This document shows, piece after piece, positions 650 to 51,454 of a stretch of 64,000 nt of DNA. This DNA comes from an uncultured Anaerolineaceae bacterium (GTDB taxonomy: Bacteria > Chloroflexota > Anaerolineae > JAAYZQ01): assembly GCA_964387775.1 (NCBI GenBank), contig CAYLZO010000002.1:8003-72002 (forward strand), given 5' to 3'. The position numbers and the translations under genes were made by a program. The notes under the pieces were generated by a model. The model searched no databases. It had not been told where the DNA came from and saw only the letters and a program-made list of their open reading frames with translations. Every line of letters begins with the position of its first letter. Position 1 is the first letter of the stretch.

Positions 650-1228
650 CTATTCGTTGAAAACCAGGCTGAGGAAGCGGTGGAGGATGCGGGCCGTCAG
701 CCCCCAGATGGTGTGCGAGCCGTAATCCCAAAAGAGAACCTCGTGGGGGCGTCCCTCGTGCTCCCAATATTCCACGCGCAGGTGTTTGGGTTCAAGCAAA
801 AAATCGAGAGGCAGCTCCACCACGCCGTCGACTTCGTGGGGATTCAGCCGGTAGTCAAAGGGGTGGGGAACCACGCCGACAAAGGGCGTCACGACAAAGT
901 CGCTGATGGTCGGAAAATCGTCCAGGACGCCCAACACTTTCACACGCTCCGGGGGAATGCCGATCTCTTCGTGGGTTTCGCGCAGGGCCGTCTCCTGGAG
1001 GGAGGCGTCCTGGGGCTCGCAGGCGCCACCGGGGAGGGAGATCTGCCCCTTGTGATGTTCCACGTTCTGGGTCCGCTGGGTGACGAGGACGTGCCACACG
1101 CCTGCCTTGCGCAACAGAGGGATGAGCACCGCCGCGCAGGTCAACGAAGGATCGGCCAGAACGCCTCGCTCTTGCCCGGCGAGGACGCGGCGGACGTGGC
1201 CCTTGAACGCTTCGGGATCGCGGTTCAC
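650..1228 (-). CDS. NUDIX hydrolase, CoA-pyrophosphatase-like
   Basis: Nudix box GGACEPQDASLQETALRETHEEIGI, preceded by LVTQRTQNVEHHKGQISLPGG (NuCoA-like motif). Start placed at GTG 1228, which overlaps the upstream TGA (GTGA); the longer 650..1345 ORF runs into the upstream gene. Confidence 0.8.
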   Translation of the reverse strand: MNRDPEAFKGHVRRVLAGQERGVLADPSLTCAAVLIPLLRKAGVWHVLVTQRTQNVEHHKGQISLPGGACEPQDASLQETALRETHEEIGIPPERVKVLGVLDDFPTISDFVVTPFVGVVPHPFDYRLNPHEVDGVVELPLDFLLEPKHLRVEYWEHEGRPHEVLFWDYGSHTIWGLTARILHRFLSLVFNE

Positions 1229-4200
1229 GTGGGGCTGCGCCTGACCGCGACCAGCGTAAAATCGTCGAACCGGGGGGCGTTGCCGACGAAATCGCCGATG
1301 ACATGCTCGATGGTCTGGGCCAACTCCTCCGCCGTCTGCTGCCAATGGGCGCTGACCAGTTCCCTGAATCGCTCGCGCCCAAACATCTCCCCCTCGGCAT
1401 CCGACGCCTCCACGACCCCGTCGGTGTAGAGGATCAGTAGGTCGCCGGGGTCCAGGTTCACATAGTGCTCGTCAAATTCTACGTCTGGCAGTACGCCCAG
1501 GGCCATGCCGTCCCGCCGCAGCTCCTCCGCCGTGCCGTTGGCGGCGCGGACGAGCAGAGGCGGCATGTGCCCGGCGTTGACAAAGCGCACCTCGCCCGAG
1601 TTTGGCTGAAGAATGGCGTAGAAAAGGGTGACGAACAGGGTAGACCGGGCGTCGGCCAGGATCAGGTTGTTGGCCTGGGCGACGGCCGTCGCCGGGGGAC
1701 GCCCGTCAATGGCCATGGTCCGCACCAACGTGCGTGAGAGGGCCATGAACAAGGCGGCCGGCACCCCCTTGTCCGCCACATCGGCGATGACCACGCCCGT
1801 CCGGCCCGGGCCGTCGCTGCCCCCGTCGGCAGGGAGGGGGATAAAGTCGTAAAAGTCGCCGCTGACCTGCCGCGCCGCGCGCCAGACGGTGGCCAGCTCC
1901 CAGCCGGGCACGTGGGGGCAGCATTCGGGCAGGAAGCTGGTCTGGATGCGCCGGGCCACGTCCAATTCCTGGCGCAATCGCTGCTGTTCGGCGGCCTCTT
2001 GGAGCAACCGGTCGTTTTCGATGGCGATGGCCGCCTGGCCCGCGATCCCGGTCAGAATGTCGAGCCAGCGCTGGCTGATGCGCTGGGCCGGCCCGGTATA
2101 GTCCACGGTCATCATGCCCAGCAACTCGCCCTTGCTGACCAGGGGAAAGGCCAGCACCGAACCCTCTCCCAGGATCTGAGCGCTTGCCTCTGTTTCGGAC
2201 GTCTCTCCCAGGGGCACAAAGGCGACGTCCTGGCGCAACGCCTGGGTCAGGGGATGATCGCCGGGAAAGCGCAGGCCCCAGAAGGCTCGTTGATCTTTGC
2301 CCTCCAGGCCATAGTCGCGGTAGGGCAGGAAGGCGTCGGCACTCAGGTCCCACAAAAAGACGGTGCAAGCCTCGACGCCGGCCAGCAGGGGCGTGATGCG
2401 CACCAGCGTCTCCAGGGCTTCCTCCAGGTCGGCGGCGCGGCTGACGGCTTCGGCCACCTGCACCAGGGCCATCGAGACGTAGGCCTCTTCTTGCTGGGCC
2501 TGCAACAGCCGGGCGCTCTGGATGACCATCGCCGCCTGGTTGGCGATGCCCGTCAGCATCTCGACCGTCCGCTCGCTAAAATGGTGGGGCTGCCCCGCAT
2601 AGTCGACCATCATGACCCCCAGCAGCTCGCCCTGAGCCAGGAGGGGCAGCAGGGCCATCTCCTGAATGTCAAAGGTCTCGGCCAGCTCGGGTGGGATGAG
2701 GCCCGCCTCGTCCTCGGCCTGGACGACGACGGGCACCTTCTCCGAGCAGAGTCGCGCTATTGCGGGGATCGCCTCGGGCGCGAACCAGGTATTCTCGTAG
2801 GCGCTGCGGAGCTCCGGGCGGAGGCCGTGGGTTTGGGCGGGCACGAAGGACTCCAGGTCCGTGTCCCAAAGCAAAATGGCGCAGCGGTCCACGCCGGCCA
2901 GGATGGGCGTCAGGCGCACGATAGTGGTCAGCACGGCGTCAATGTCCGCGACGTAGCTCATCGACTCGGCCACCTGGAGCAGGGCGGTGGAGAGCCAGGC
3001 CTGCTGCCGCTCGGCCTCGTAGAGCTGGGCTTCCTGGATGGCGATGGCGATCTGGTCGCCCAGGGTCTCCAGGATAAAGAGGTCGTCGTCGCCAAAGGCA
3101 TTGGCCTCCCTGCTCTGCACGTCGAGCACGCCCACCAGCCGGTCCTCGAGCAGGAGCGGGACGGACATTTCGGACAGGGTCTCTTCCAGCGCTTCGACGC
3201 AGCGGTAGCGGGTGTCGGTTTCGACGTCGTTGACGATGACGGCCTCGCCGTGGGCGGCGACCCAGCCGATGAGGCCCTCGCCCCAGGCCACGTCAAAGGC
3301 GACGTCGTGGGTTCCGGCGCTGGCGCTGGCCTCAAAATTCACCACCTGGCGCTCGGGGTCGGCGGTAAAGATGGCGATGTGATAGTAGCCGAAATTCTCG
3401 CGCACCAGGTGGACGATCCGTTCAAAGAGTTCGTCCAGTTCCAGCGTGGCGGTCACCTGGCGGCTGACTTGGCTGATGGTCTCCAGTTGGCGGGCGCGCC
3501 GGCGCTCCTGGTTGTAGAGCTGGGCTTTCTGGATGGCGACGGCTGCCTGGTTGGCCATGGCCGACAGCACGCGCAGGTCGCTCTCGCCGTAGGCGCTCCG
3601 CTGGAAGGATTGGATCGACATGGTGCCGATGACGGTTTCGCCGGCGATGAGCGGCACAAAGAGGGCGGAATGGGGCGGCCGTTCCGAGACGTAGGCGGGC
3701 TGGGCCGGCAGCGACTCCAATTCCCTCTCAAAGTCACGGACCAGGATCGGCTGCTTCGATTCCCGCAGCCAGTTAACCAGTCCGACACCGGGGGCGAGAC
3801 GAAAGGAGCGCCTCGGTTCTGGCTGTCCCTCGCGGACCCAGAGCCGGATGTCATAGTCGTCGCCCTCGAAAAAGCCCAGGTGAAAGATGGTCGTGTCCAC
3901 GATGCGGCGGGCGTGTTCGTACATGAGCTGGCAGAGCTCGTCGATGTCCCACTGGGCCTGGACGATGGCCCGGCCCACCTGCTCGATGGTGGTCAGCTCG
4001 GCGACCCGTTGGGTCAAGGCGGTGCGGGTATCGGCCCAGCGCTGGGTCAGGAGCGCGACGGCGACGATGGCCAGCGCCAGCAGAACGAAGGGCAGCCCGC
4101 CGAGTTCGGTGTAGGCCAGGGCAACGACGAGGCTAAGGGGCAGGGGCAGCAGCTCGATGAGCAGGGCGGTAGGGATGGCGTCCTGCACAAAGGTTCGCAG

Positions 4201-4788
4201 GCGCGACAACCCGCCGTCCAGGTAGTCAAAGAAGCCCCAGCCGACGTGATCCAGGGTGAACCACAGGAGGCAGACGGTAGCCAGGGCCAGGGCGGTCTGC
4301 CCGTTGGCGCCCGTCGCGCCGCCGACGGGCAACCGTCCGTTGAGGACCGCGAACAGCCAGCCGCCCAGCAGGGCCATCGAGGCCTTGAGCCCGGCGTTAA
4401 AGAGGGGCACTTCGATGAGGTGCCGCCGGGTCAGCCTGCGGTGGCGCAAGGCGTTCAGCTCCAGATAGGTCAGCCCGCTCCAGGCGGCGACGGCCGCGCC
4501 CCCGGCCGGTCCCAGGGCAAAGACGGCGGCCAGGTCGATGACGCCGGCCAGGCTGTGGACGATGGGTGAGCCCAGGTGAAAGCTGGATCGCTGAACGAGG
4601 AAGGAGAGGATGACAAAGAGAAGGATAGAGGGCCAGGAGGGGAGCTGGGGGGCGGTCACGAGTCGGTAGCCCAGGATGCTCAATCCGGCCAGGCCGACGA
4701 CCACGCTGTAGAACAGGGCGAGCCAGGGATGGCCCGTCGGTGACGTGCGACCTGCCTGGTTCAGCGGTGCAGGGTTCCTATTCGCCAC
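1225..4788 (-). CDS. Membrane-anchored 4xGAF PP2C/SpoIIE-type serine phosphatase (RsbU/RsbP-like output domain)
   Basis: Hydrophobic multi-pass N-terminus. Four copies of the GAF C-terminal helix motif (ANQAAVAIQKAQLY, GDQIAIAIQEAQLY, ANQAAMVIQSARLL, AGQAAIAIENDRLL). C-terminal SpoIIE motifs are SGDFYDF, VVIADVADKGVPAAL, FVNAGHMPP and LILYTDGVVEA. GTG start with an AAGAGG RBS. Confidence 0.85.
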   Translation of the reverse strand: MANRNPAPLNQAGRTSPTGHPWLALFYSVVVGLAGLSILGYRLVTAPQLPSWPSILLFVILSFLVQRSSFHLGSPIVHSLAGVIDLAAVFALGPAGGAAVAAWSGLTYLELNALRHRRLTRRHLIEVPLFNAGLKASMALLGGWLFAVLNGRLPVGGATGANGQTALALATVCLLWFTLDHVGWGFFDYLDGGLSRLRTFVQDAIPTALLIELLPLPLSLVVALAYTELGGLPFVLLALAIVAVALLTQRWADTRTALTQRVAELTTIEQVGRAIVQAQWDIDELCQLMYEHARRIVDTTIFHLGFFEGDDYDIRLWVREGQPEPRRSFRLAPGVGLVNWLRESKQPILVRDFERELESLPAQPAYVSERPPHSALFVPLIAGETVIGTMSIQSFQRSAYGESDLRVLSAMANQAAVAIQKAQLYNQERRRARQLETISQVSRQVTATLELDELFERIVHLVRENFGYYHIAIFTADPERQVVNFEASASAGTHDVAFDVAWGEGLIGWVAAHGEAVIVNDVETDTRYRCVEALEETLSEMSVPLLLEDRLVGVLDVQSREANAFGDDDLFILETLGDQIAIAIQEAQLYEAERQQAWLSTALLQVAESMSYVADIDAVLTTIVRLTPILAGVDRCAILLWDTDLESFVPAQTHGLRPELRSAYENTWFAPEAIPAIARLCSEKVPVVVQAEDEAGLIPPELAETFDIQEMALLPLLAQGELLGVMMVDYAGQPHHFSERTVEMLTGIANQAAMVIQSARLLQAQQEEAYVSMALVQVAEAVSRAADLEEALETLVRITPLLAGVEACTVFLWDLSADAFLPYRDYGLEGKDQRAFWGLRFPGDHPLTQALRQDVAFVPLGETSETEASAQILGEGSVLAFPLVSKGELLGMMTVDYTGPAQRISQRWLDILTGIAGQAAIAIENDRLLQEAAEQQRLRQELDVARRIQTSFLPECCPHVPGWELATVWRAARQVSGDFYDFIPLPADGGSDGPGRTGVVIADVADKGVPAALFMALSRTLVRTMAIDGRPPATAVAQANNLILADARSTLFVTLFYAILQPNSGEVRFVNAGHMPPLLVRAANGTAEELRRDGMALGVLPDVEFDEHYVNLDPGDLLILYTDGVVEASDAEGEMFGRERFRELVSAHWQQTAEELAQTIEHVIGDFVGNAPRFDDFTLVAVRRSPT

Positions 4789-5206
4789 GCGGCAACCTCT
4801 TGACCATGGTCAGTTCGTTGCCTTCCTCGGGGTCGAAGGAAAAGCGGACCTCGTCCATGAACTTTCGGATCAAAAAGAGCCCCAGGCCGCCCAGGGAGCG
4901 CTCCTCCAGGGGAGCGTCCACGTCGGGCTTGGGCACGTCCTCCGGTTCAAAGCTCCGGCCCCAATTACGAACGCGCATGACGAACTTTTTGTCACCGAGG
5001 TGACAGCTGACTTCCATATCGCCCGGCTCCATGTCGCGGTAGGCGTGGTGGACGACGTTGGCGCAGGCTTCGTCCACGGCGAGCTCGATCTGGTGTAGAG
5101 TCCGCTCACTGAAACCGGCCCGCTGGGCCGCCTCGCGCACGCAGGCCATGGCGCGGGGCACGTTTTCCAAAACGGCTTTCATTCTGAACTTGGCGATCTG
5201 TTCCAT
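4778..5206 (-). CDS. RsbW/SpoIIAB-like anti-sigma-type serine kinase (HATPase_c)
   Basis: 142 aa. N-box ELAVDEACANVVHHAY and G-box GGLGLFLIRKFMDEV. Lies directly downstream of a STAS gene and overlaps the PP2C gene by 11 nt. Confidence 0.8.
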   Translation of the reverse strand: MEQIAKFRMKAVLENVPRAMACVREAAQRAGFSERTLHQIELAVDEACANVVHHAYRDMEPGDMEVSCHLGDKKFVMRVRNWGRSFEPEDVPKPDVDAPLEERSLGGLGLFLIRKFMDEVRFSFDPEEGNELTMVKRLPRGE

Positions 5207-5343
5207 CGAATCCCCAGGTAATCAAGCCGGTGGGTTCACCGGCTCTATTACGAATTTTCCCGGGAGGGTGACACGAACAAGACCGCCTCGCATCCCCAGG
5301 GAATTGTGGCGGCCTTGTCCTGTGCCTGTGCCTGTGGTGGGTG

Positions 5344-5682
5344 CTAAAAGCTTCCGACGGCGTGCACGTCCTCGTCGTAGAACTTGAACAGGCGATCAAA
5401 CCCCACGAGGTCAAAGCTCTCTTTTAGTTTGGGCGTGATCTCGGAGATGACGACGTCCCCGCTCGGAATCGCCTTGCGGACCTTCATCTGAGCCGAGAGG
5501 AGTGCTTTGAGCCCGGCGCTGCTAATGTAGGGTGCGTCGGCCAGGTTCACGACGATGTTCTTCTGGCCTGCCTGGATCAGGCCCAGCAGGACCTTTTCCA
5601 ATTCTGGAGCGGTGGTGCTGTCAATCCGGCCCGAGACGGTGACCAACTCACAGCGCTTCATGGCCTCGGTCTTGATCTCCAT
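5344..5682 (-). CDS. STAS-domain anti-sigma-factor antagonist (RsbV/SpoIIAA-like)
   Basis: 112 aa from ATG 5682, with an AGGAGG RBS 7 nt upstream. Conserved phosphorylatable Ser context APYISSAGLKALL. The 197-aa ORF in the track is an upstream extension through non-coding repeats. Confidence 0.85.
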   Translation of the reverse strand: MEIKTEAMKRCELVTVSGRIDSTTAPELEKVLLGLIQAGQKNIVVNLADAPYISSAGLKALLSAQMKVRKAIPSGDVVISEITPKLKESFDLVGFDRLFKFYDEDVHAVGSF

Positions 5683-5737
5683 GGTTCGACCTCCTGTCTG
5701 ATTGAGTTTCGGAGCGTTGGCTTGAGCAACGTTGGGC

Positions 5738-5766
5738 ATTGTACCACAGTTACTTGCAGAGAGCAA
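5738..5766 (-). promoter_or_regulatory. Sigma-70-like promoter for the RsbV/RsbW/PP2C operon
   Basis: Minus strand reads TTGCTC (5766-5761), a 17-nt spacer, then TGgTACAAT (extended -10; hexamer 5743-5738). It lies about 55 nt upstream of ATG 5682. The -35 hexamer is inside the proximal copy of a 15-bp tandem repeat. Confidence 0.45.
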
Positions 5767-5785
5767 ACGTGCAGAGAGCAAACGA
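5756..5785. repeat. 15-bp tandem direct repeat (gcagagagcaaacgt / gcagagagcaaacga)
   Basis: Two adjacent copies, 14/15 identical, read directly. The proximal copy overlaps the putative -35 element. Confidence 0.9.
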
Positions 5786-6040: not shown

Positions 6041-7495
6041 CTAGGGGATTGTTCCACCCGTCTCGGTTGCCAGGCGCACGGCGGTCATCGCCAGGCCCAG
6101 GTAGAGCCAAAAGATCGAGACTGAGTGGGGAAAGTTTAGGTTAAAGAAATAGTGGTCGAGGACGCCGCCCACCAGGATGCCCGCCACCGCAGCCGTCAGC
6201 CCCAGCAGGATGGCTTCCAGGCCGGCGCGCTGACGGACCTGGGGCCAGGCCCGCCACACGTGCCAGAAAAAGAGGCCGATGGTGAGGAGAAAGACGGCCA
6301 GGCCGATGAGTCCCATTTCCTCAGCCATGAGGAGGTAGACGCTAGAAACGCCGATGTAGAGGCTGGTCTCCGGCGTGGACACGAACCCGACCCCGATCCA
6401 CGGGTGGCGGCTGATCAGCGCAAAGGCATCCTTGTATTCGCCCAGGCGCATCTGGGTTGCCAGGTCCTGGGTGCGGATGCCCTCCACAAAGTGCTGGACA
6501 TAATCCTGAGCCTGGGGCAGGAGGAGCAGGAGGGCCGCGCCCACCACGAGGGCAGGGATGAGCTTCCGGTACTTGACCAGGGCCAACACGCCCAGGCCCA
6601 CCGCCAGGCCGGCCATCGAGCCCCGGGAGTAGGTGAGGTAGAGGCAGAAGGCGTCGATCACAAACATGGCGGCCAAAAGGCGGCGCGAGAGAAGGGGCTC
6701 GCGGGCAAAGAGCTGGGCGCCCGTCAGGGTGGTGATGAGGATGAGCAGGCCGCCTAGCACGTTGGGGTCGGTGGAGGTCGAGATGGCGCGCAGGGGCAGG
6801 TCGGGATTGTCCTCGACGTAGCGCAGCACGCCCGGCCCGGAGGGATAGCCCACCCGCCCCAGGGCCGAGAGCAGCCGGATGCTCCAGTCGGCGGGCAGGT
6901 AGTAGAGCACCACGCCGATGACGGCAGCGCCGAATCCGGCCAGGAGAAGGGCGGTGACCAGCAGGCGCAATTGCGGGCGGGTCTGCACGGTATTGACCAC
7001 GACGAAAAAGAGCCCAATGCTGAGCAAAAGCTCGACAAAGTGGCGTAGGATGTATTGGTCGAGGTAAGCGTGAGCCAGGCCGGCGATGAACGAGGCGCAG
7101 GCCAGCAGCATAAAGACGACGATGGGCAGGCCCAGGGGTGTGGCGACGAACTGCCCTGCCTTGCCGGTGGCGATGCGCATCAGCCACACGAAATAGAGGG
7201 CGATGAGGGCCAGGTCCAGGAAGGTGGGCGTGAAGCCGATCTTGAAGGGCAGGGCGCCAAAGGGGAGCAGGCAGATCACGCCGGCGACGGCGATGAGGCT
7301 CCACTGGGTGTCGCGCAGCATCAGCAGCCCGCCGGCGAGGGCCACGACCCCCGCCACGGCAAAGAGGGGCGAGAGGATGGCCACGTAAGCGCCGGCCAGC
7401 AGCCCGGCGGCGAGGCAAAATGCAACGACCGCCGCCAGGGCAAAGCGACGGTCACTTTCGACGAATATCCGTTGCAAAGCGGTCACAGTTTCCAA
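6041..7495 (-). CDS. O-antigen ligase/polymerase-like (Wzy_C family) multi-pass membrane protein
   Basis: 484 aa, hydrophobic throughout. Has the YSRGSMAGLAVGLGVLAL motif region typical of O-antigen ligase domains. Confidence 0.7.
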   Translation of the reverse strand: METVTALQRIFVESDRRFALAAVVAFCLAAGLLAGAYVAILSPLFAVAGVVALAGGLLMLRDTQWSLIAVAGVICLLPFGALPFKIGFTPTFLDLALIALYFVWLMRIATGKAGQFVATPLGLPIVVFMLLACASFIAGLAHAYLDQYILRHFVELLLSIGLFFVVVNTVQTRPQLRLLVTALLLAGFGAAVIGVVLYYLPADWSIRLLSALGRVGYPSGPGVLRYVEDNPDLPLRAISTSTDPNVLGGLLILITTLTGAQLFAREPLLSRRLLAAMFVIDAFCLYLTYSRGSMAGLAVGLGVLALVKYRKLIPALVVGAALLLLLPQAQDYVQHFVEGIRTQDLATQMRLGEYKDAFALISRHPWIGVGFVSTPETSLYIGVSSVYLLMAEEMGLIGLAVFLLTIGLFFWHVWRAWPQVRQRAGLEAILLGLTAAVAGILVGGVLDHYFFNLNFPHSVSIFWLYLGLAMTAVRLATETGGTIP

Positions 7496-7529: not shown

Positions 7530-7626
7530 CGGGAGTGGATGGGAGTCGAACCCACCAGGGCCGCTTCTGCAGCGCCCCTCATACGGTTTTGAAGACCGCG
7601 GAGCCCACCGGGACTCAACCACCCCC
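7530..7626 (-). tRNA. selC: tRNA-Sec (anticodon UCA)
   Basis: Hand-folded from the minus-strand sequence:
- 8-bp acceptor stem GGGGGTGG/CCACTCCC (one G-U pair).
- 6-bp D stem GAGTCC/GGGCTC with the 4-nt loop CGGT.
- Anticodon arm GCGGT-CTTCAAA-ACCGT (anticodon TCA).
- 27-nt variable arm.
- T arm GTGGG-TTCGACT-CCCAT, discriminator G; CCA is not encoded.
The architecture mirrors E. coli selC as recalled. Confidence 0.85.
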
Positions 7627-7699: not shown

Positions 7700-8491
7700 T
7701 CAGCGGGTGCGGCGTCGCCACTCTTTTTTCACAGAGAGCTGGTCCAACTGCTCCGGGGTCTCGACGTCCATGAAATCGCGGAGCAGGCGGGCGAACTTGG
7801 CCGTCTCGTCGAGCATGGGAAAATGGTGGGACTTGGAGAGCACGATAGCCCGGGCGGCATAGTGGTTTCGCTCCAGTTCGTCGGCCTGGTTGGGGTCGAT
7901 CACATTGTCCCGCTCGCCATAGACGGTCAGCAGGGGGACGTCTATTTCGTCCAGGATCGTGCGCAGATCGAGTTGAGCCACGGTCTGGATAGACAGGGCA
8001 ATGGCGTGCTCGGCGGTCTTGCTGACTGCCATCTCGACCTCAGGATAGGGGCGCTGCCGGTGCCAGAAGAGTCGGGCCATGGCGTCGTTAGGACCGGCTG
8101 AGAGGAGCCGGCGGTTGATCCCATCGGGCTTGAGGGGCAGGCCCACGGCCATCACCTTGCTCACCCGATCGGGCTGCTGCGCCGCGAGCTTGGCCGCGAT
8201 GGCCGCACCCAGCGTATGGCCCACCACCGGTGCCTGCCAGATGCCCAGCTCGTCCATGAAGGATAGGATCAGGTCTGTGTAGCGGTCCAAGTTGTACCGC
8301 TCTTTTGACTTGTCCGAATCCCCAAACCCCCACAGATCCAGGGCATAGGTGCGGAACTCGCGGGAGAGATCGTCCATCACCGGGACCCAATAGCGCCAGG
8401 AGCCAAGCCAGCCGTGGATAAAGATGACGGGCTTGCCCCGGCCAAAGATCTCGTAGTGTATGAGGTTGCCGTGAACCAGGATTCCGCTCAT
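7700..8491 (-). CDS. Alpha/beta hydrolase-fold protein with Thr at the nucleophile position
   Basis: 263 aa. HGWLGSWRYW oxyanion region. The nucleophile elbow reads GHTLGA (Thr codon ACG at 8213-8215) instead of GxSxG. Asp (GERDNVI) and His (SHHFPMLDE) are retained. Paralogue of the gene at 34478-35260. Confidence 0.8.
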   Translation of the reverse strand: MSGILVHGNLIHYEIFGRGKPVIFIHGWLGSWRYWVPVMDDLSREFRTYALDLWGFGDSDKSKERYNLDRYTDLILSFMDELGIWQAPVVGHTLGAAIAAKLAAQQPDRVSKVMAVGLPLKPDGINRRLLSAGPNDAMARLFWHRQRPYPEVEMAVSKTAEHAIALSIQTVAQLDLRTILDEIDVPLLTVYGERDNVIDPNQADELERNHYAARAIVLSKSHHFPMLDETAKFARLLRDFMDVETPEQLDQLSVKKEWRRRTR

Positions 8492-8939: not shown

Positions 8940-9536
8940 TCAGGTGTCGTCGCCGGACACTTCCAGGACCGCCACTGCGACGTCGTCCTTGCTGCTGCCA
9001 AAGCGCTCGACGATCTCGTGGGCCACGGTTTCGGGTGCCGCTTCTGGCAGGGCCGCCAAGCCCCCTTGCCGGATAAACTCGGACGAGATCCCGTCGGTAT
9101 AGATGGCGAGCCGATCTCCCGGCGAACAGTCGTAGCGGAACTCGATCAACTCGGGCAACCGGTGGCCCACCACCCCGTTCTGCGAGAAGGGCTGCATCGA
9201 CTCCCGGCTGTCGGCGTTAAAGCCGACGTTGCCCACCCCTACAAAAGACAGCTTTTTCGCCCGGTGTTCCACGCGGACGAGGGCTGCAACGATCCCTCGC
9301 GTCCCGTGCAGGGCTTTATGGCAATCGGTCAGAATCTCGACCAAGGGCCGGTTGCGGTTCGCTGCCACCCAGGCCACCGCTCGGCGCGAAGCTTCGGCGG
9401 CCGGCGGCCCGCTGCCCAGGCCGTCGACCACGGCAAGCAGGGTGCTGGCCTCGTCCTGCCAGACGCCGACGGTGTCTCCAGACGCCGACTCGCCATCCTT
9501 GGGACGGCAGACCGCGGCAGCTTTGGCGGTGATCAC
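8940..9536 (-). CDS. rsbX: RsbX-like PP2C feedback phosphatase
   Basis: 198 aa. Motifs are SGDTVGVW, LLAVVDGLGSGPPAAEAS, FVGVGNV and LAIYTDGI. Resembles B. subtilis RsbX (recalled) and sits directly after the RsbT-like gene. Confidence 0.75.
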   Translation of the reverse strand: MITAKAAAVCRPKDGESASGDTVGVWQDEASTLLAVVDGLGSGPPAAEASRRAVAWVAANRNRPLVEILTDCHKALHGTRGIVAALVRVEHRAKKLSFVGVGNVGFNADSRESMQPFSQNGVVGHRLPELIEFRYDCSPGDRLAIYTDGISSEFIRQGGLAALPEAAPETVAHEIVERFGSSKDDVAVAVLEVSGDDT

Positions 9537-9539
9537 GGG

Positions 9540-9941
9540 CTAGGGCAACCACTTGCAGGCGACCACCGTCGTGCCGCTGCCGACCTCTGACTCGATCTCG
9601 AACTCGTCCATCAGTCGTTTCGTTCCGGGCAGGCCCATTCCCAATCCTTGTGTCGTCGAATAGCCATTTTGCATCACCAGTTCCAGGTCCTTGATCCCGG
9701 GCCCCTGATCCTCGCAGATGATCTGGAGCCCTTCCTTTTCGTTGTGCTCGATTCTGTTCAAGATGATCTGCCCGCTATTGGCATAAAGCACCACGTTCCG
9801 TGCCAATTCCGAGATGGCCGTTGCGATCCGGGCCTGGTCGATGATGCCAAAGCCCATCTGCCGCGCCAGGTTGCGACCCTCGACGCGGGCGGCCACGATG
9901 TCCAGGTCGCTGTTGATGACGACGCGCTGTATTTCAGACAT
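9540..9941 (-). CDS. rsbT: RsbT-like stressosome serine kinase
   Basis: DIVAARVEGRNLARQMGFGIIDQARIATAISELARNVVLYA ... EDQGPGI ... GLGMGLPGTKRLMDEF is near-collinear with B. subtilis RsbT (recalled). ATG 9941 has GGAGG 9 nt upstream; the alternative start is ATG 9947. Confidence 0.85.
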   Translation of the reverse strand: MSEIQRVVINSDLDIVAARVEGRNLARQMGFGIIDQARIATAISELARNVVLYANSGQIILNRIEHNEKEGLQIICEDQGPGIKDLELVMQNGYSTTQGLGMGLPGTKRLMDEFEIESEVGSGTTVVACKWLP

Positions 9942-10314
9942 GGGCATCTTCCTCCACCGACAGGCGGCGCAAGATCTCGATGCCCTTCTCCAGGTTGAGG
10001 GCCGTGATAACGCCCCGCAACTCGACGCCCAGTTCGACCAGCGTGACGGCCACGGCGGGTTGCAGGCCCGAAACGACGACCTGGGTGCCCATCAGGGCGG
10101 CCATCTCGGCGATGTCGCCCGTGAGTTTGGCGATAAAGCTGTCCACGATCTCCATCGCCGTGAGATCCAGGATGAGGCCCCGGGCCTTTGTGTCGTAGAT
10201 GCGCTGGAGCAGATCGTCCTTGAACTGGGTCGCCGCCTTGTCGTGGAGCTGGGTTTGCACCGAGGCCACGAGAAAGTCCTGGATCTGCAAAATTGGAATC
10301 CGCGAAACTTCCAT
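9934..10314 (-). CDS. rsbS: RsbS-like STAS scaffold protein
   Basis: 126 aa: MEVSRIPILQIQDFLVASVQ ... GLILDLTAMEIVDSFIAKL ... VVSGLQPAVAVTLVELGVEL. Closely resembles B. subtilis RsbS, including the DS phosphosite. The 250-aa ORF in the track is an out-of-context extension. Confidence 0.9.
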   Translation of the reverse strand: MEVSRIPILQIQDFLVASVQTQLHDKAATQFKDDLLQRIYDTKARGLILDLTAMEIVDSFIAKLTGDIAEMAALMGTQVVVSGLQPAVAVTLVELGVELRGVITALNLEKGIEILRRLSVEEDAHV

Positions 10315-10802
10315 CAGTTGGCCCTCCCCTCCCCGTTCACTTGGGTGACTTGGAATCCCCGCTCGCTCAGCGCGTATTCGATGCCGGCCTGCAAATTGCT
10401 CCGGGTCACCACGCCCCCCAGGTCCAGGCCGAGCGTGACGATCGAGATGGCGGTCTCGTGGCTGATGCCCACCAGCACGCACTGGGCGCCCAGAAACGAC
10501 GCGGCCTTGATCGTCTTCATTAGGTGGTGGGCAACGGCCGTATCCACCATCGGCACGCCGGTAATGTCCAAGATGACGATCTCGGCCTGGTTGCGCACGA
10601 TGCCGTTTAGCAGATTCTCCATAATCCGCGAGGCGCGGGCTGCATCGATGGTGCCAACCAGCGGTACGGCCAGCACCCCTTCCCACACCTGGATCACGGG
10701 CGTGGACATCTCTTCAAACACACCTAGTCGAATTCGGCACTGGGCGAGTTGGGATCGGAGTTTCTCTATGTCGTTGGTTGTCTCGGTCGTTTTCTCGTTC
10801 AT
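10314..10802 (-). CDS. RsbR-type STAS protein, minimal (short coiled-coil N-terminus)
   Basis: 162 aa with an RsbR-type STAS domain: STPVIQVWEGVLAVPLVGTIDAARA ... ILDITGVPMVDTAVAHH ... LVGISHETAISIVTLG. Confidence 0.85.
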   Translation of the reverse strand: MNEKTTETTNDIEKLRSQLAQCRIRLGVFEEMSTPVIQVWEGVLAVPLVGTIDAARASRIMENLLNGIVRNQAEIVILDITGVPMVDTAVAHHLMKTIKAASFLGAQCVLVGISHETAISIVTLGLDLGGVVTRSNLQAGIEYALSERGFQVTQVNGEGRAN

Positions 10803-11767
10803 CGCTCCTGCGCCACCAATTCCATGGCATATTCGATGCCGGCTTGAAGGTTGCTGCGCGTCACCAGCTCCGAAAGGTCTACGCCCAATGTGACAATGAT
10901 CTCGGCCACGTTGGGGCGCAGCCCGGTGAGGACCGCCCTGGCACCCAACAGGCGGGCTGCGCGGGCCGCCTGGAGCAACGAGTGGGCGACGTTCGTGTCT
11001 ACCTGGGGCACGCCGGTGATGTCGATAATCACGACCCGGGCGTCGTGCTCCTCGATGCCCGTCAGCAATGCCTCCAGGATGCGGTCCGCCCGGCCCGGGT
11101 CCACGGCTCCGATCAGGGGCAGCACCAGGACCTCGTCGTGGACCGGCACAATCGGCGTCGAAAGCTCCTCCAGCGCCTCCTGGACCTGCCGGAAGAGGCG
11201 GTTGTTCTCGATAGCCACGGCGGCCTGGTTGGCGATCATGCCCAGGAGTCGGCGCTCGCGGGTGTCATAGACGCCGACCTCGTAGCTCTGGACCGAGATG
11301 ACACCCTTGACCTGGCCCCGGACCTTCATGGGCACCCCCAGCCACGAGCGGGCCTTTTTCCGTTCCTGCCCATAACGCTCCGGCTCCAGTTCAAAGCGCT
11401 CTCGGGCCTGGGCATAGACGTCGTCGAACAGGAGCGGCTGCCCATGTTCGATGATCCAACGCAGCAAAGGCCCCAGCTTTCGCTCCTCTGGCGGATAGAG
11501 CACTCCGTTGTCGGCGAACAAGGGAAAAAAGCCCCTCGTGGCGCCCGGCGCCGCCAGGACGATGTAGAACGCATCGACGGACAGCACCGCACAGATCTGC
11601 TGGTAAATGGTCTGGTACAGTTTTTCCAGCCTGGAGGACTCGAGCCCCAGGAACTGGCTGACCTGGTCGATGAGTTGCAGATCGGCCTCGTATTGCTTCA
11701 GCAGCTCCCTCAGCCGCTGGACGTCTGACCGGACGCCGGGCTCAGCCGGCAACCTGGTTTCAGCCAT
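10799..11767 (-). CDS. RsbR-type STAS protein with an N-terminal GAF domain
   Basis: 322 aa. GAF helix ANQAAVAIENNRLF, then STPIVPVHDEVLVLPLIGAVD ... IDITGVPQVDTNVAHS. ATGA overlap with the next gene. Confidence 0.85.
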   Translation of the reverse strand: MAETRLPAEPGVRSDVQRLRELLKQYEADLQLIDQVSQFLGLESSRLEKLYQTIYQQICAVLSVDAFYIVLAAPGATRGFFPLFADNGVLYPPEERKLGPLLRWIIEHGQPLLFDDVYAQARERFELEPERYGQERKKARSWLGVPMKVRGQVKGVISVQSYEVGVYDTRERRLLGMIANQAAVAIENNRLFRQVQEALEELSTPIVPVHDEVLVLPLIGAVDPGRADRILEALLTGIEEHDARVVIIDITGVPQVDTNVAHSLLQAARAARLLGARAVLTGLRPNVAEIIVTLGVDLSELVTRSNLQAGIEYAMELVAQER

Positions 11768-12851
11768 CGCCGACGATCCTCTTGCTCATCTTGGTCAGGG
11801 CGTGCTCGACGCCGCTTTGCAAGTTGCGTTTCGTATCCAGATGGCGCAAATCCACGCCGACCCGGATCATCTCGGCGGCTGATCGGGCGTGAAGGCCGAC
11901 GAGCAACACCTCTGCCCCCAGGAGCCGTCCGGCCTGGCCCATCGCTTCCAGGTGGTGCACGGTCTCCTCGTCCATTTCGAGCAAGCCGGTCAGGTCGATA
12001 ATGGCGACCTTGGCCCCGTGCTCGGCGATGCCGTGCAGCAGGGAGTGGCGGATGAGGTCGGCCCGGTGGGCGTCCATGTAGCCCACGATGGGCAGGACGA
12101 TGATCTGATCGTGCACGGCAATGACCGGCGCCGCCAGCTCTTCGATGGCCTCTAGAAGCCGTGCCTGCTGTTCGGTCCGAGCTTGCAGGTCGTTCAGGAG
12201 CACGGCCTGGTCGCGGCGCGCCGCCTGCAACTCTTCCGCCTGCTGGTGGGCCTCGTGAAGGGCCAGGGACAAGTGCCGGTTGCCGATCCAGTTGAGCACG
12301 GCCACCAGCAGCAGCACCAGGCCCAGGCTGAGGACGCTGGGCAACAAGGGCCACTGCAGCGGGATTTCACTTATCCCCAGGTGTTGCAGCAGGCCCACGA
12401 CGGCATAGAGCGCCCAGGCAATCACCGCCGTCACGATGCTCCCCTTGCCACCCAACAGCAAGCCGGCCAGGCTGACGGCCAGGAAATAGAGGACCACGTC
12501 GTTGATCTCGATCCCCGCCCGCCAGAGCGCCCAAGTGGTAAAGCCCAGCAGCGCGCCGATCAGGACGTAGCTGGTCACCTGCACCGCGCCCCGGCGGGAG
12601 AGAACATAGACGGCCGCACAGGCGGCCAGACCGACCCCCAGGGCCGCGAAGGAGGGCCACTGCATGGGGAGCCGAGTCGTTTCTGTGCCCGGGGTCAGCC
12701 ACAGCAAGAGATTGCTGGCCAGCCAGAGCACCCCGACGATGATCAGGCTGATGGCCGTCGCATTGAGCACCACCTCGCGAAGGGCCACCTCCGGATCGTC
12801 CGAGCGCCCGCCGAGAATCGATTGCAGGAAAGGCGGCATCCTAAGGCTCAT
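11760..12851 (-). CDS. RsbR-type STAS protein with a multi-pass membrane N-terminus
   Basis: 363 aa. About 190 aa of consecutive hydrophobic helices, a coiled coil, then STAS: AAPVIAVHDQIIVLPIVGYMD ... IDLTGLLEMDEETVHH. Confidence 0.8.
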   Translation of the reverse strand: MSLRMPPFLQSILGGRSDDPEVALREVVLNATAISLIIVGVLWLASNLLLWLTPGTETTRLPMQWPSFAALGVGLAACAAVYVLSRRGAVQVTSYVLIGALLGFTTWALWRAGIEINDVVLYFLAVSLAGLLLGGKGSIVTAVIAWALYAVVGLLQHLGISEIPLQWPLLPSVLSLGLVLLLVAVLNWIGNRHLSLALHEAHQQAEELQAARRDQAVLLNDLQARTEQQARLLEAIEELAAPVIAVHDQIIVLPIVGYMDAHRADLIRHSLLHGIAEHGAKVAIIDLTGLLEMDEETVHHLEAMGQAGRLLGAEVLLVGLHARSAAEMIRVGVDLRHLDTKRNLQSGVEHALTKMSKRIVGDG

Positions 12852-13996
12852 CCACCCGACCTCCCGCCCGGCGATTGGGGCGCAAACCCCGGTGGTCTCA
12901 CCGTGAGCTGCTGGCCCAGGATCGTCAAGGCGTGCTGAAAGCCACTCTGCAAATCCCGGCGCGTGACCACGTCTCCCAGCTTGACGCCAAGGGCTATCAA
13001 CGTCTGGGCGACCTCCGGCCGGATGCCGACCAGGATCGTCTCAGCGCCGAGAAGCCGCGTGGCCTTGGCCGTCTGCTTGACGGCCTGGGCCACCTGGGTG
13101 TCGACCTCGGGCACCCCGGTGACGTCCACGATCACCACCCGGGCGCTCTCCGCTTCGATGGTTGCCAGGAGATTGTCCATCAGGCGCTCGGTACGCGCTG
13201 CGTCCATGTGTCCGATCAGCGGGGTGACGATCACCCCCTCGTGGACCGGGATGATCGGTATGGAGAGCTGCTCCACCGTGTTCCATAGCCGCTGTTGTTC
13301 TGCCAGGCTGGCCTCCAGTTGATGGGCCGATTCGGTTCGCCGATCTACTTCTGCTTCTAGCTGCTCGCGGATCTCTTCCAGCACCTGGGCGTAGGCCAGG
13401 GCCTGGTGCTGCGATTCCAGGGCCTCGCCCAGCGCCCGCCTCACCTCGCGGTGAGAGAGCCAGACGATGACGGCCAGGGCCAGCAGCGCAATGCCCAGGG
13501 CGAGGCTGTCGGCGGCGAGGCTGTCGCCGGGCATCACCGGACGGGGCAGCCTGCCGGCCCGCTGGACCAGGCCCACGATAGCATAGCTTGCGGTACAGAG
13601 CAGAGCCAGGATGACGGCCGGCCAGACGCCGATGAGGACCCCGGCCATCACCGTCGCCAGGGCCAGGCCCACCAACGTGCTATGCCCGATGCCCAGGCGG
13701 ATGAGAATGGCCAGCATGGTCAAAAACAAGATCCCCGTGGGAATGTAGGCGGCCAGCCGCACCCGGCCCTGTCGCCCCAGCCAGTAGGCCAAACCGTAGA
13801 ACGGAATCTGGACAAAGGTATAGAGCATGCCGATGGCCGGCGAGTAGCCCATCAGCCAGGCCCACACGCTGGCCAGCCAGAGCACGAGGCTCAGCCCGCC
13901 CACGCCGACGAGCACCCGGTTCAGCACGTACTGCTGCCGGGCGACCTCCGGGTCGGACGAGGTTGGCGCCAGCCACATCGAGAGAGGCACCGTCAT
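12848..13996 (-). CDS. RsbR-type STAS protein with a multi-pass membrane N-terminus
   Basis: 382 aa. Hydrophobic N-terminal half, a coiled coil, then STAS: LSIPIIPVHEGVIVTPLIGHMD ... VDVTGVPEVDTQVAQA ... GIRPEVAQTLIALG. Confidence 0.8.
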   Translation of the reverse strand: MTVPLSMWLAPTSSDPEVARQQYVLNRVLVGVGGLSLVLWLASVWAWLMGYSPAIGMLYTFVQIPFYGLAYWLGRQGRVRLAAYIPTGILFLTMLAILIRLGIGHSTLVGLALATVMAGVLIGVWPAVILALLCTASYAIVGLVQRAGRLPRPVMPGDSLAADSLALGIALLALAVIVWLSHREVRRALGEALESQHQALAYAQVLEEIREQLEAEVDRRTESAHQLEASLAEQQRLWNTVEQLSIPIIPVHEGVIVTPLIGHMDAARTERLMDNLLATIEAESARVVIVDVTGVPEVDTQVAQAVKQTAKATRLLGAETILVGIRPEVAQTLIALGVKLGDVVTRRDLQSGFQHALTILGQQLTVRPPGFAPQSPGGRSGG

Positions 13997-16623
13997 GGAC
14001 TCTTCCCCTTGCCCGGTTTCTGCGCCGTGAGTCGCCGGCCGATGGCGTCGAGTGCGTATTGAAAGCCGCTTTGCAGATCGCTGCGCGTCACCATGTCGCC
14101 CAGGTTTACGCCGAGCGTCACCAGGGTCTGGGCCACGTCGGGCCGGATGCCAACCAGGATCGCCTCGGCGCCCAGGAGCCGCGCAGCGCGCACGCTCTGC
14201 ATCAGGTAGTTGGCCACTTGAGTGTCGATGACCGGCACGCCCGTGATGTCCAGAATGACGACCTTGGCCCGGTGTTCCTCGACCCCCCCGAGCAGGGTCC
14301 CCAGGATCTGCCCCGCGCGGCGTTCGTCCACGCGGCCCACCAGGGGCACGACGATGACCCCGTCTACGATGGGCACGACGGGGCTGGCCAGCTCCTCCAC
14401 GGTGTGGAGCAATTGTGCCTGGGCGCCCACCAGTTCCTGGAGGTCGAGGTTCAGCAACTGCATGTCTTTGAGCAACTGAAAGTTCTGGAGGGCCAGTGCC
14501 GTCTCCTGGGCAAAGAGCTCGATGATGTGCAGGCTCTCGGCCGTAGGGCGCCGGCCGTCCTGCGGATCATCCAGGCCGATGATGCCCAAGATCCGCCGGT
14601 CCCGGCCGTAAAGGGGCACGTAGAGCAGGTCCTGGGGATGCCAGGATTCGGTTTCTTTGGCGCTCACGCGACTCTTGACGCCTTGCACGTGCTCGCGGAC
14701 CCAGGGGTCGCTCCAGGGCAAATAATAGCACTGGCCGATGCGGAACCGTTCGAATTCCTCGCCGAATCGCTTTTGCCATTCGCTGCCCGGCAGGAGGTTG
14801 GCCCGCAAGGCGGCTTCGTCCTCGGGGCGAAAGCCGGCGCAGACCAACTCCGTAACGTTCAAGTCTGCGTCTCGCAGCGACACCGAGACCCGCCCCCAGC
14901 CGGTCTCCCGGATGCCCTCGGCAATGATCCGGAGCTTGTCCGGCAGGACGTCGGTTTTCTGCACCTCCAAGACGACGCGGTGCAGGCGGGCCAGTTTGTC
15001 CCGCTCCTCGGCGGCGCTCCGGTGGGCCTGCTGGACGTCTTCGTAGAGTTGGGCGTTTTGCAGGCTAATGCCCGCCTGATTGGCGATGGCCGTGAGCAGC
15101 CTCATCTGCCGGCCAGAGAAGGCGTAGGGCTCATAGCTCTGGGCGCTGATCACGCCCAGCACCTGGCCCTTGGCGATGATGGGCGCACCGAGCCAGGACT
15201 GGGTCGGTGCGCCGATGACCTCCGGCGCGATGGGTAATTGGTCTCGCTCCATTTCCATGTTTCGGATCAGCAGCGGCTGGAGCGTGCTCACGACGTGGGC
15301 CGTCAGACTCTGGTGTCTGGCCAGGGGGCGGCTAAAGGCGGCCAGCCGCTCGCCCTGGTCGTAGACCAGCTTAAAATGCAGTTCGTCCCGGTCCCGGTCA
15401 TAGAGGGCGACGAAAAAGGCCCGGGTATCCATGATCTCGCCGGCCTGCTCGTAGATGGTCTGAAGGACGTGGTCCACGTCGAGGCTGGAGGCCATCACCG
15501 CGCCGATGTTGGAAATGCTCTCCATCTCCCGGGCGCGGCGGGTGGCCTGATCGAGGAGCCTGGCCCGCTGGATGGCGGCGGCCACCTGGGTGGCCGTGAT
15601 GTTCAGGAACTTGAGATCGGCCTCGCCAAAGGCAAAGGGTTCGTGGCGAAAGGCATAGATCGTGCCGATGGCCTGCCCGTCGACGAGGAGCGGCACGCCC
15701 ACGGCCGAGCGGATCGGGTCGGTGCGGCCGCCGATGTGGATGCGGCGGGGGTCGGTGTCGGCGTCGCCCACCAGGGTGGGTTGGCCCTCCCGATAGATCC
15801 AGGCGTTGATGCCCTGGTCGAGGGGAAACTCGAGGCCCAGCATCGATTCTGCCAGCGAACCCACGGCGGCCCGCACGCGCAGGGCCTGGCCGCTGGACGT
15901 CGCCAGGTTGATGAAACAGCCGTCAAAGTCCAGCACGTGGCCGACCTGGGAGAGGACTGTGGCCAGCATCTCGTCGAGATGGGTCGCCTGGGCCAGGGTC
16001 GCCGCGATTTCGTAGAGGGAGCCCATCTCCTCGGCGTGGCGCCGCGTCTGGTCCAGCAGGCGGGCATTTTCGATGGCTATCGCCACCTGGCTGGCAAAGA
16101 TAGCGAGCACGCGCACGTCGTCGCTCTGAAAGTCGCGCCCTTGGCGTTTGTTGCAGACCTGGATGGCTCCCAGGAGCTTGCCCTCGTGTTGGAGTCCAAC
16201 GGCCAGAACGGTCTCGACCTCGATCTGCCGGGCCATTTCGTCCAGGCCCAGCCCTCGGATCAAGGGATCGTTCTGGGCGTCGTTCACGAGCAAATAGGCG
16301 CCATTCTCCCAGATGTCGCGGATGGGGCTTGCTTCGTCGATGGGGACCTGGTAGTCGGCGAGGATCTCGTCGGAGACGCCCATGGCCGGGGCCTGGGCAA
16401 TCAGGGCCTCTGCCTCGGCGTCGTAAAGCAGGATGATGGCGATCTCGGCCTGCAGCAGCTGGGCGGCCTGTTCGGTCAACTGGTGATAGATGTCCTCGCC
16501 CAGGTGAGTGGCCGCGCCAAAGACGCGAGCCGCCCGCTCCAACGCCGAGATCTCGCGATTTCGGGCTTTGAGCAAGGTTTTCAATTTTTCACAATCGGTT
16601 GCCTTTTGCTCCAGGTCGCCCAT
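13993..16623 (-). CDS. RsbR-type STAS protein with four GAF-like domains
   Basis: 876 aa. Four GAF-helix motifs (ASQVAIAIENARLL, ATQVAAAIQRARLL, ANQAGISLQNAQLY, AQETALALQNFQLL), then STAS: ASPVVPIVDGVIVVPLVGRVD ... LDITGVPVIDTQVANY ... GIRPDVAQTLVTLG. Confidence 0.85.
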   Translation of the reverse strand: MGDLEQKATDCEKLKTLLKARNREISALERAARVFGAATHLGEDIYHQLTEQAAQLLQAEIAIILLYDAEAEALIAQAPAMGVSDEILADYQVPIDEASPIRDIWENGAYLLVNDAQNDPLIRGLGLDEMARQIEVETVLAVGLQHEGKLLGAIQVCNKRQGRDFQSDDVRVLAIFASQVAIAIENARLLDQTRRHAEEMGSLYEIAATLAQATHLDEMLATVLSQVGHVLDFDGCFINLATSSGQALRVRAAVGSLAESMLGLEFPLDQGINAWIYREGQPTLVGDADTDPRRIHIGGRTDPIRSAVGVPLLVDGQAIGTIYAFRHEPFAFGEADLKFLNITATQVAAAIQRARLLDQATRRAREMESISNIGAVMASSLDVDHVLQTIYEQAGEIMDTRAFFVALYDRDRDELHFKLVYDQGERLAAFSRPLARHQSLTAHVVSTLQPLLIRNMEMERDQLPIAPEVIGAPTQSWLGAPIIAKGQVLGVISAQSYEPYAFSGRQMRLLTAIANQAGISLQNAQLYEDVQQAHRSAAEERDKLARLHRVVLEVQKTDVLPDKLRIIAEGIRETGWGRVSVSLRDADLNVTELVCAGFRPEDEAALRANLLPGSEWQKRFGEEFERFRIGQCYYLPWSDPWVREHVQGVKSRVSAKETESWHPQDLLYVPLYGRDRRILGIIGLDDPQDGRRPTAESLHIIELFAQETALALQNFQLLKDMQLLNLDLQELVGAQAQLLHTVEELASPVVPIVDGVIVVPLVGRVDERRAGQILGTLLGGVEEHRAKVVILDITGVPVIDTQVANYLMQSVRAARLLGAEAILVGIRPDVAQTLVTLGVNLGDMVTRSDLQSGFQYALDAIGRRLTAQKPGKGKSP

Positions 16624-21446: not shown

Positions 21447-21451
21447 CGAGC

Positions 21452-30370: not shown

Positions 30371-30442
30371 ACCATCACCAGCTTTTCAAATCTACCACTG
30401 CCAAAGATGTTCCAAGACACGCGATTCCGGGGAAGCCGCTGT

Positions 30443-34470: not shown

Positions 34471-34477
34471 TTGCCTT

Positions 34478-35260: not shown

Positions 35261-35317
35261 AGTCTCTCCTTCTCAAGACATATTCGTTCCCAGACAGTCC
35301 CTGCGGCTTCCTCCAGG

Positions 35318-35689: not shown

Positions 35690-35735
35690 TTGTTATTGCT
35701 CCTTCCTTCGTTCAAAATAAACTCGTTTCGGTTGC

Positions 35736-51437: not shown

Positions 51438-51454
51438 GTCGTGGGACTGGCAAA

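Follow-up and report, generated by a model that had tools for sequence, protein, structure and literature searches.

A 64,000-nucleotide stretch of DNA from an uncultured Anaerolineaceae bacterium (assembly GCA_964387775.1, contig CAYLZO010000002.1, positions 8,003 to 72,002 of the forward strand), here called the window, carries a partner-switching operon with no sigma-factor gene beside it. The operon occupies positions 650-5766 of the minus strand and consists of four genes in series, encoding a STAS anti-sigma-antagonist-type protein, an RsbW-like serine kinase, a membrane sensor phosphatase and a NUDIX hydrolase (Table 1). The G+C content is 62-68% over most of the window, and true genes are distinguished by high G+C in the third codon position. 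Related loci were collected by exact-protein look-ups, from a genome collection and by a metagenome scan seeded with an alignment of 46 kinase sequences. They were annotated by phmmer with the window's own proteins as queries, and the counts of neighbouring genes given below refer to the close clade.

Table 1. Features of the operon and its surroundings in the window (aa, amino acids; nt, nucleotides; TM, transmembrane)
Feature	Position	Strand	Description
NUDIX hydrolase, coenzyme A (CoA)-pyrophosphatase (NudL/NUDT7) type, predicted	650-1228	-	192 aa; GTG start
Sensor phosphatase	1225-4788	-	1187 aa; multi-TM N-terminus, four GAF, C-terminal SpoIIE/PP2C
RsbW-like GHKL serine kinase	4778-5206	-	142 aa; HATPase_c_2
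Hairpin, candidate attenuator/terminator	5270-5326	-	G+C-rich, two-tier, with T-rich tail; within STAS-kinase spacer
STAS anti-sigma-antagonist-type protein	5344-5682	-	112 aa; predicted phospho-site S55 in YISSAGL
Operon promoter	5738-5766	-	-35 TTGCTC (5766-5761), 14 nt, extended -10 TGGTACAAT (5746-5738)
Tandem duplication	5755-5784	-	15-nt unit CGTTTGCTCTCTGCA x2; doubles the -35 element
Wzy_C-family polytopic membrane protein (O-antigen polymerase/ligase-like)	6041-7495	-	484 aa; Pfam Wzy_C 7.7e-17
tRNA-Sec (selC)	7530-7626	-	Rfam RF01852 69.6 bits; ARAGORN; about 34 nt upstream of Wzy_C reading frame
Stressosome cassette	8940-16623	-	five RsbR-type proteins, RsbS, RsbT, RsbX (Pfam)
Large GAF signalling block	16634-31339	-	upstream of stressosome cassette
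Wzx/Wzy-type polysaccharide locus	43089-64000	+/-	six sulfotransferases, several glycosyltransferases, MOP flippase, WecA-like priming transferase

Genes and signals of the operon

The STAS protein matches the Pfam STAS family (9.2e-14) and passes the anti-sigma-antagonist model TIGR00377 with 57.2 bits against a cut-off of 53.45. It is a single-domain STAS protein with a conserved phosphorylatable serine in the D/S-S-x-G-L loop, and the YISSAGL motif is invariant in all eight orthologues. The start was set at MEIKTE, with an AGGAGG Shine-Dalgarno sequence just 5' of it, because conservation with the closest genomic relative (locus L001) begins exactly there. A mechanically called open reading frame (ORF) of 197 amino acids was rejected as a longer form of the protein, as it is conserved in L001 only from MEIKT onwards.

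The kinase matches HATPase_c_2 at 1.3e-32, and its best solved relative is RsbW (6m36, 2.5e-11), followed by SpoIIAB. It is not an equivalog of either, with 77.7 bits against the NCBIfam RsbW model PRK04069 (cut-off 145) and 49.4 bits against the SpoIIAB model TIGR01925 (cut-off 135). The N box (E46, N50) and the G2 box (GGLGL) are intact. The aspartate of the G1 box is the residue that contacts adenine in GHKL ATPases. It is present in 114 of 119 relatives but replaced by asparagine in the window kinase (Asn81; codon 81, positions 4964-4966, minus strand), and one relative (P0120) has glutamate. The same change from aspartate to asparagine is found in at least three other lineages (P0007, P0099 and P0104), whose kinases are 61-68% identical to that of the window, and the operon is otherwise intact in both asparagine-bearing contexts that were examined (P0099 in L024 and P0104 in L025). 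Asn81 is regarded as a tolerated variant and not a sequencing error, because an identical kinase protein was assembled from an independent read set, on a contig of 1.4 kb, and because asparagine recurs in lineages with intact operons.

The substitution of so conserved an adenine-contacting residue might mean that the switch is degenerate in this organism. Asn81 would then abolish ATP binding, the kinase would be a mere binding partner or in the process of being lost, and the phosphatase would have no substrate produced in cis. This explanation is decidedly unlikely given the recurrence of the change in three further lineages, with intact operons at L024 and L025, and the independent assembly of the same protein. 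The remaining kinase motifs, the serine of the STAS protein and the phosphatase are also all intact, and the codon bias is normal.

The phosphatase has four GAF stretches and a SpoIIE domain (1.2e-55) with the complete set of four PP2C metal motifs (GDFYD, DVADKG, YTDG and DDFT). Its hydrophobic segments lie at residues 20-250 approximately, and the N-terminal 275 residues constitute a membrane domain that is rare, since a set of 1.84 billion clustered proteins contains only 90 representatives of it. In 46 of 46 proteins it occupies the N-terminus and GAF domains come next; 34 of these proteins end in SpoIIE and 6 in a histidine kinase. The match to the NCBIfam SiaA model is weak and limited to the PP2C domain (55 bits, cut-off 700).

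The NUDIX protein passes the model for CoA pyrophosphatase, PRK10707, with 141.7 bits against the curated NCBI cut-off of 134, and its best matches in the PDB are all CoA diphosphatases (NUDT11, NUDT7 and Deinococcus DR1184). Like NudL, NUDT7 and DR1184, it carries a Nudix box and an upstream NuCoA-like motif, here VTQRTxxVEHHKGQISxPGG, which is conserved in 14 orthologues. The family model and the motif thus predict an enzyme of the CoA-pyrophosphatase type. The gene adjoins the 3' end of the phosphatase gene in all 12 close-clade loci with enough downstream DNA. In the window the stop codon of the phosphatase and the start codon of the NUDIX gene overlap as GTGA, and an NTGA overlap occurs in 8 of 12 related loci. 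The start of the phosphatase gene also overlaps the end of the kinase gene, by 11 nt. Two loci deviate: in L019 (14051-15481) the NUDIX domain is fused to a NIF3/DUF34 domain in a protein of 476 amino acids, and in L036 (1-2614) the NUDIX gene comes straight after the kinase gene, without an intervening phosphatase gene, on a short contig where misassembly is possible. The NUDIX protein is best regarded as an enzyme that is co-expressed with, and translationally coupled to, the phosphatase, and not as a component of the switch.

The promoter was confirmed by its conservation. The pattern TTGnnn-N13-16-TGnTAnAAT is present in 26 of 27 distinct related loci, 30-59 nt ahead of the STAS start codon, and is kept regardless of which gene lies upstream; the operon therefore has its own promoter of housekeeping type. 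A generic scan of the window for consensus promoters did not report the element at 5766-5738, because its -35 element is weak. The tandem duplication of CGTTTGCTCTCTGCA is seen only in the window and in an identical Logan contig, and is not found in the aligned relatives.

The STAS and kinase genes are separated by a spacer of 137 nt with a predicted fold of -63.3 kcal/mol (z = -4.46). The outer stem of its hairpin (GRCCGCC-loop-GGCGGYY) and the T-rich tail occur in 19 of 34 related loci, while the sequences of the inner stem vary. A search of the whole window with Rfam at gathering thresholds matched the tRNA-Sec only and assigned no family to the hairpin. If the hairpin is a partial terminator, the STAS protein would be produced in excess of the kinase and the phosphatase.

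A preliminary description of this DNA, made from the sequence alone, had recognised the four genes (STAS, HATPase kinase, a membrane 4xGAF SpoIIE/PP2C protein and NUDIX), the phospho-serine context YISSAGL, the GTG of the NUDIX gene overlapping the TGA of the phosphatase gene and a promoter-like element. All four identities were confirmed by domain searches, the overlap by direct reading, and the motif and the promoter by their conservation. The NUDIX enzyme had also been proposed as a co-regulated output. Its place as a conserved member of the operon is upheld by the adjacency and the overlap, but no observation points to it as an output of the switch.

Conservation of the module and its surroundings

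The kinase has 674 relatives at E<=1e-10, and the best 120 of these are 60-73% identical to it and almost all metagenomic. The nearest relative in the genome collection, 59% identical, comes from an Anaerolineae metagenome-assembled genome. Assemblies in which the module occurs include GCA_034435455.1, DAOQVR01, GCA_976012695.1 and GCA_975970865.1. The alignment of 46 kinases contains 26 invariant columns. The order STAS-kinase-PP2C-NUDIX is intact in all 12 loci with enough DNA while the flanking regions vary.

The most constant upstream neighbour of the module is the Wzy_C gene: of the 22 close-clade loci whose upstream DNA is long enough, 20 have it directly ahead of the STAS gene. It is in turn directly preceded by selC in the window and in all nine close-clade loci scanned, giving the order selC, Wzy_C, STAS operon. 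Further upstream the loci differ, with a histidine-kinase/stressosome block, a V4R gene or other genes, and selC marks the boundary to a variable upstream signalling block. The Wzy_C protein of the window has no solved relative at E<=1. It was considered as an orthologue of IctB and rejected, with 53.7 bits against a cut-off of 366.

A second clade, with kinases 39-45% identical to that of the window, is represented by L068, L077, L078, L083 and L097. These loci have the order Wzy_C-STAS-kinase-STAS followed by a GAF or PP2C protein, and contain no NUDIX gene. Because the second clade keeps Wzy_C without NUDIX, the link to Wzy_C is older than the link to NUDIX.

Other genes for glycan assembly recur near the module. 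In L078 its neighbours on the two sides encode a PMT_2 glycosyltransferase and a malectin/CBM protein, and in L024 and L025 a counterpart of the window's polysaccharide locus lies 6-8 kb away. In L050 the upstream genes are instead those for a Wzy_C-TPR-cyclophilin protein of 1525 amino acids, a WecA-like priming transferase and a VTT protein. The window has counterparts of the Wzy_C-TPR-cyclophilin and WecA-like genes at 57.9-63.5 kb, at the end of its own polysaccharide locus. This locus also holds the start of a UDP-glucose dehydrogenase gene and encodes a Wzy_C-TPR-cyclophilin fusion of 1490 amino acids, and its probable product is a sulfated surface polysaccharide. Within the locus, at 51428-52284, lies a nucleotidyltransferase/HepT-like toxin-antitoxin pair.

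An Inositol_P gene lies next to the NUDIX gene in L017, L018, L024 and L025. The two were considered as a pair acting on 3'-phosphoadenosine 5'-phosphosulfate and 3'-phosphoadenosine 5'-phosphate for the sulfotransferase locus. This idea was dropped because the scores of the Inositol_P proteins favour a SuhB/HisN-like identity over CysQ (all below cut-off) and because the gene is absent from the window.

Sigma factors and the stressosome cassette

Pfam detected no sigma-70 region in essentially all ORFs of the 64 kb with coding-like codon bias. FliA, RpoS and RpoE of Escherichia coli K-12 were also used as phmmer queries against all six-frame ORFs of at least 60 amino acids in the window and the related loci, and gave no match in the window or its close-clade relatives, whose loci were covered with up to 20 kb of context each. 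L013, L014 and L015 served as a positive control, because in them this search picked up genes for extracytoplasmic function (ECF) sigma factors directly beside distant homologues of the kinase. Despite many rearrangements, no close-clade locus has a sigma gene within up to 10 kb on either side of the kinase, and the contexts of the second clade contain none either. The earlier statement that the 64 kb contain no sigma-factor ORF is borne out by both searches, and it holds in the syntenic loci as well.

From this absence the preliminary description had concluded that what the kinase sequesters must be something other than a neighbouring sigma factor. If a non-sigma target is meant, the conclusion is not warranted, because the RsbW-like protein Slr1861, encoded in the sigma-less icfG operon of Synechocystis sp. 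PCC 6803, was shown to be the anti-sigma factor for SigC, whose gene lies elsewhere (PMC12329169). Nor does the kinase need to sequester anything, because the STAS protein itself is the output in other sigma-less systems (PMC8256260).

The module might accordingly belong to a split sigma regulon, in which the kinase is the anti-sigma factor for a group 2/3 or ECF sigma factor encoded elsewhere, the switch serves stress or adaptation, and Wzy_C and NUDIX are bystanders or part of the regulon. The example of Slr1861 and SigC, the ECF sigma genes beside the distant homologues, RsbW and SpoIIAB as the best matches of the kinase, and the action of the RsbW-type system of Chlamydia on sigma66 (PMC8256260) all agree with such an arrangement. 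It fits less well with the lack of sigma genes around every close-clade kinase, with scores far under the RsbW and SpoIIAB equivalog cut-offs, and with recurrent neighbours that are solely glycan-assembly genes and NUDIX. A split regulon is a credible alternative, although we give it clearly less than an even chance, and it is compatible with a glycan-related role.

The stressosome cassette of the window contains the full set of stressosome genes. Its five RsbR-type proteins differ in their N-termini, which have four GAF domains (876 amino acids), multiple TM segments (two proteins, 382 and 363 amino acids) or one GAF domain (322 amino acids), and one protein is a short form of 162 amino acids. 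The genes that follow the cassette encode a receiver-only response regulator and an alpha/beta hydrolase, and no RsbU-type phosphatase. An alpha/beta-hydrolase gene, the tRNA-Sec, the Wzy_C gene and the operon's own promoter lie between the cassette and the operon.

The GAF signalling block on the other side of the cassette includes a response regulator-GAF-histidine kinase (748 amino acids), a PDZ-GAF-histidine kinase (870 amino acids), a response regulator-GGDEF protein and a hybrid kinase of 2972 amino acids with 12-13 GAF domains, PAS and two receivers. GAF arrays of the same type are joined to three outputs, namely STAS/RsbR, histidine kinase and PP2C. The histidine-kinase block is conserved in L017-L019.

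Beyond the block, an MglA/MglB-like trio is located at 33814-37197 on the minus strand, with a Ras-like small GTPase, a Roadblock/LC7 protein and a DUF4388 protein. Beside the trio are genes for a V4R-domain protein and a second alpha/beta hydrolase, a paralogue of the one at 7700-8491.

The stressosome is not a constant companion of the module. The full RsbR/S/T/X set is found only in the window, L017 and L026, that is in 3 of about 15 loci keeping the module. L019 and L047 have no more of it than an RsbT-like gene, and L001, L018, L024, L025, L028, L040, L042, L045, L049 and L050 lack the set altogether but keep the module. Pfam found no RsbU_N domain, the docking domain that binds RsbT, in the phosphatase or elsewhere in the window.

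These results bear on the proposal that, together with the stressosome 3 kb upstream, every component of the B. subtilis SigB cascade is present at this locus. Genes with the R, S, T and X domains and V- and W-like genes do occur, but a continuous cascade is disfavoured by the facultative nature of the cassette and the missing RsbU_N domain, and a coupling of RsbT to the PP2C protein, also raised in the preliminary description, is unsupported. In such a cascade the stressosome would free RsbT, RsbT would activate the GAF-PP2C protein in the way it activates RsbU in B. subtilis, and the V/W pair would switch, as in a SigB-like pathway lacking the sigma factor only. What recommends this explanation is that in the window, L017 and L026 a stretch of 16 kb carries R, S, T, X, PP2C and V- and W-like genes, all on a single strand. 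We nevertheless consider it very improbable, since at least 10 related loci have the module without the full cassette, no RsbU_N domain is present, and the tRNA-Sec, Wzy_C and a separate promoter intervene. The cassette also sits between the histidine kinases and a receiver-only response regulator. The stressosome of Vibrio vulnificus, which occurs without SigB and is associated with a two-component system (PMC10436020, PMC10014275), is the better analogue of the cassette. On the interpretation we prefer overall, with slightly better than even confidence, the stressosome would be a separate, facultative cassette of the histidine-kinase/response-regulator block that does not feed the phosphatase.

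Function of the switch and comparison with known systems

That preferred interpretation, to which the same degree of confidence applies, is that the operon encodes an autonomous partner switch of an Anaerolineae-like lineage, with its own extended -10 promoter, a trans-acting output and a role connected to envelope polysaccharide. The direction of signalling, the nature of the output and the glycan-related role are what we infer from genes, motifs and gene order. The TM/4xGAF/PP2C protein would be the sensor and, on a cue from the membrane or a small ligand, would dephosphorylate the phosphorylated STAS protein at S55. The unphosphorylated STAS protein would then bind the RsbW-like kinase, and rephosphorylation by the kinase would reset the switch. 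The output partner would be encoded in trans, either as a protein, such as a distant sigma factor, that the kinase binds and lets go when the switch is thrown, or as a target bound directly by the unphosphorylated STAS protein. Both a distant sigma factor and a non-sigma output are possible, and they are mutually compatible. The CoA-pyrophosphatase-type NUDIX protein would be made along with the phosphatase.

The Wzy_C gene upstream and the repeated juxtaposition with polysaccharide loci suggest that the switch controls the assembly of envelope polysaccharide. This is the best-supported guess at its physiological role from the gene neighbourhood, and it is favoured because Wzy_C and polysaccharide genes recur beside the module in both clades and after independent rearrangements. 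Precedents for the control of polysaccharide by a partner switch that has no cis-encoded sigma factor are SypA/SypE and HmpU/V/W (PMC8256260) and HenR/All4160/Alr3423, which controls a polysaccharide enzyme directly (bioRxiv 10.64898/2026.04.08.717354).

Several observations weigh against this interpretation. In L040 the module adjoins a gene for prolyl-tRNA synthetase on its upstream side, and no glycan gene is found there. The polysaccharide locus of the window has its own Wzy_C-domain protein besides the paralogue next to the module. Gene adjacency is circumstantial evidence for a glycan role, and as the close-clade loci all come from one lineage, shared descent instead of selection may account for part of the synteny. 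Asparagine in place of the G1 aspartate may also weaken ATP binding and alter the switch in this particular organism.

A narrower form of the glycan role is a post-translational gate that is independent of sigma factors altogether. Here the unphosphorylated STAS protein or the freed kinase would act directly on the neighbouring Wzy_C protein or on a different enzyme for the sulfated polysaccharide, the TM domain would sense from within the membrane how the pathway stands, and the NUDIX enzyme would tune the pool of a cofactor containing 3'-phospho-ADP (CoA or a related nucleotide) in concert with it. We regard this combination as unlikely. If it is true, it would constitute a lineage-wide regulatory device of the Anaerolineae without a characterised equivalent.

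A close parallel to the operon as a whole is the icfG cluster, which encodes the STAS proteins Slr1856 and Slr1859, the PP2C phosphatase IcfG, Slr1861 and the isoamylase Slr1857 (PMC12329169). Both clusters combine STAS, PP2C and an RsbW-like kinase with a co-transcribed metabolic enzyme, and neither has a sigma factor in cis. In icfG, however, the phosphatase is not of the TM/4xGAF type, there are two STAS proteins, and the enzyme is an isoamylase and not a CoA pyrophosphatase. Its kinase has a demonstrated distant target in SigC.

The RsbU-RsbV-RsbW-SigB system of Bacillus subtilis uses the same three switch families (STAS, GHKL serine kinase and PP2C), and the window has a stressosome set nearby. 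Unlike B. subtilis, the window has no sigB-like gene, the phosphatase receives its input through membrane and GAF domains and not through an RsbU N-domain, and the stressosome is facultative and forms a separate transcription unit. The NUDIX and Wzy_C partners are absent from Bacillus.

The similarity to SypE/SypA in Vibrio fischeri, HmpU/V/W in Nostoc and HenR/All4160/Alr3423 in Anabaena lies in a STAS phospho-switch in or beside polysaccharide loci with no sigma output shown. In those systems the kinase and phosphatase are fused in SypE, the STAS domain is fused to a glycosyltransferase in All4160, and the inputs are receiver domains. The window operon has instead a free-standing STAS protein and a TM/GAF input, and its link to Wzy_C is genomic only. 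SypA, BtrV and HmpV are further examples of non-sigma outputs of partner switches (PMC8256260).

SiaABCD of Pseudomonas aeruginosa resembles the window operon in joining a PP2C sensor of the membrane to a kinase and a small phospho-switch protein; its output is not a sigma factor. It differs in that SiaC is not a canonical STAS protein and in that the operon itself encodes the output, the diguanylate cyclase SiaD. The window operon has no cyclase, and the nearest GGDEF gene (30443-31339) lies beyond the histidine-kinase block.

Many genomes contain partner-switching modules that lack a sigma factor in cis, but few of these modules are understood. It is already established that such switches exist, including those accompanied by a metabolic enzyme in the operon or tied to polysaccharide. 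What is new is the conserved architecture of selC, Wzy_C, STAS, kinase, a phosphatase with a novel TM domain, 4xGAF and PP2C, and a CoA-pyrophosphatase-type NUDIX, restricted to an Anaerolineae-like lineage. The known CoA pyrophosphatases (NudL, NUDT7 and DR1184) are not reported to share an operon with partner-switching phosphatases, and a literature search for an operon combining a CoA-pyrophosphatase NUDIX with such a phosphatase gave nothing relevant.

Should the kinase do no more than bind a sigma factor encoded elsewhere, the operon would be part of an ordinary split regulon of local interest only. The module offers an unusually clean comparative case, with hundreds of metagenomic orthologues, a fixed promoter and gene order, two constant non-regulatory partners (Wzy_C and NUDIX) and a phosphatase whose membrane sensor domain is rare and unnamed. 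If the link to polysaccharide is true, it would add an uncultured but environmentally abundant lineage to the Syp, Hmp and Hen cases and supply candidate direct targets.

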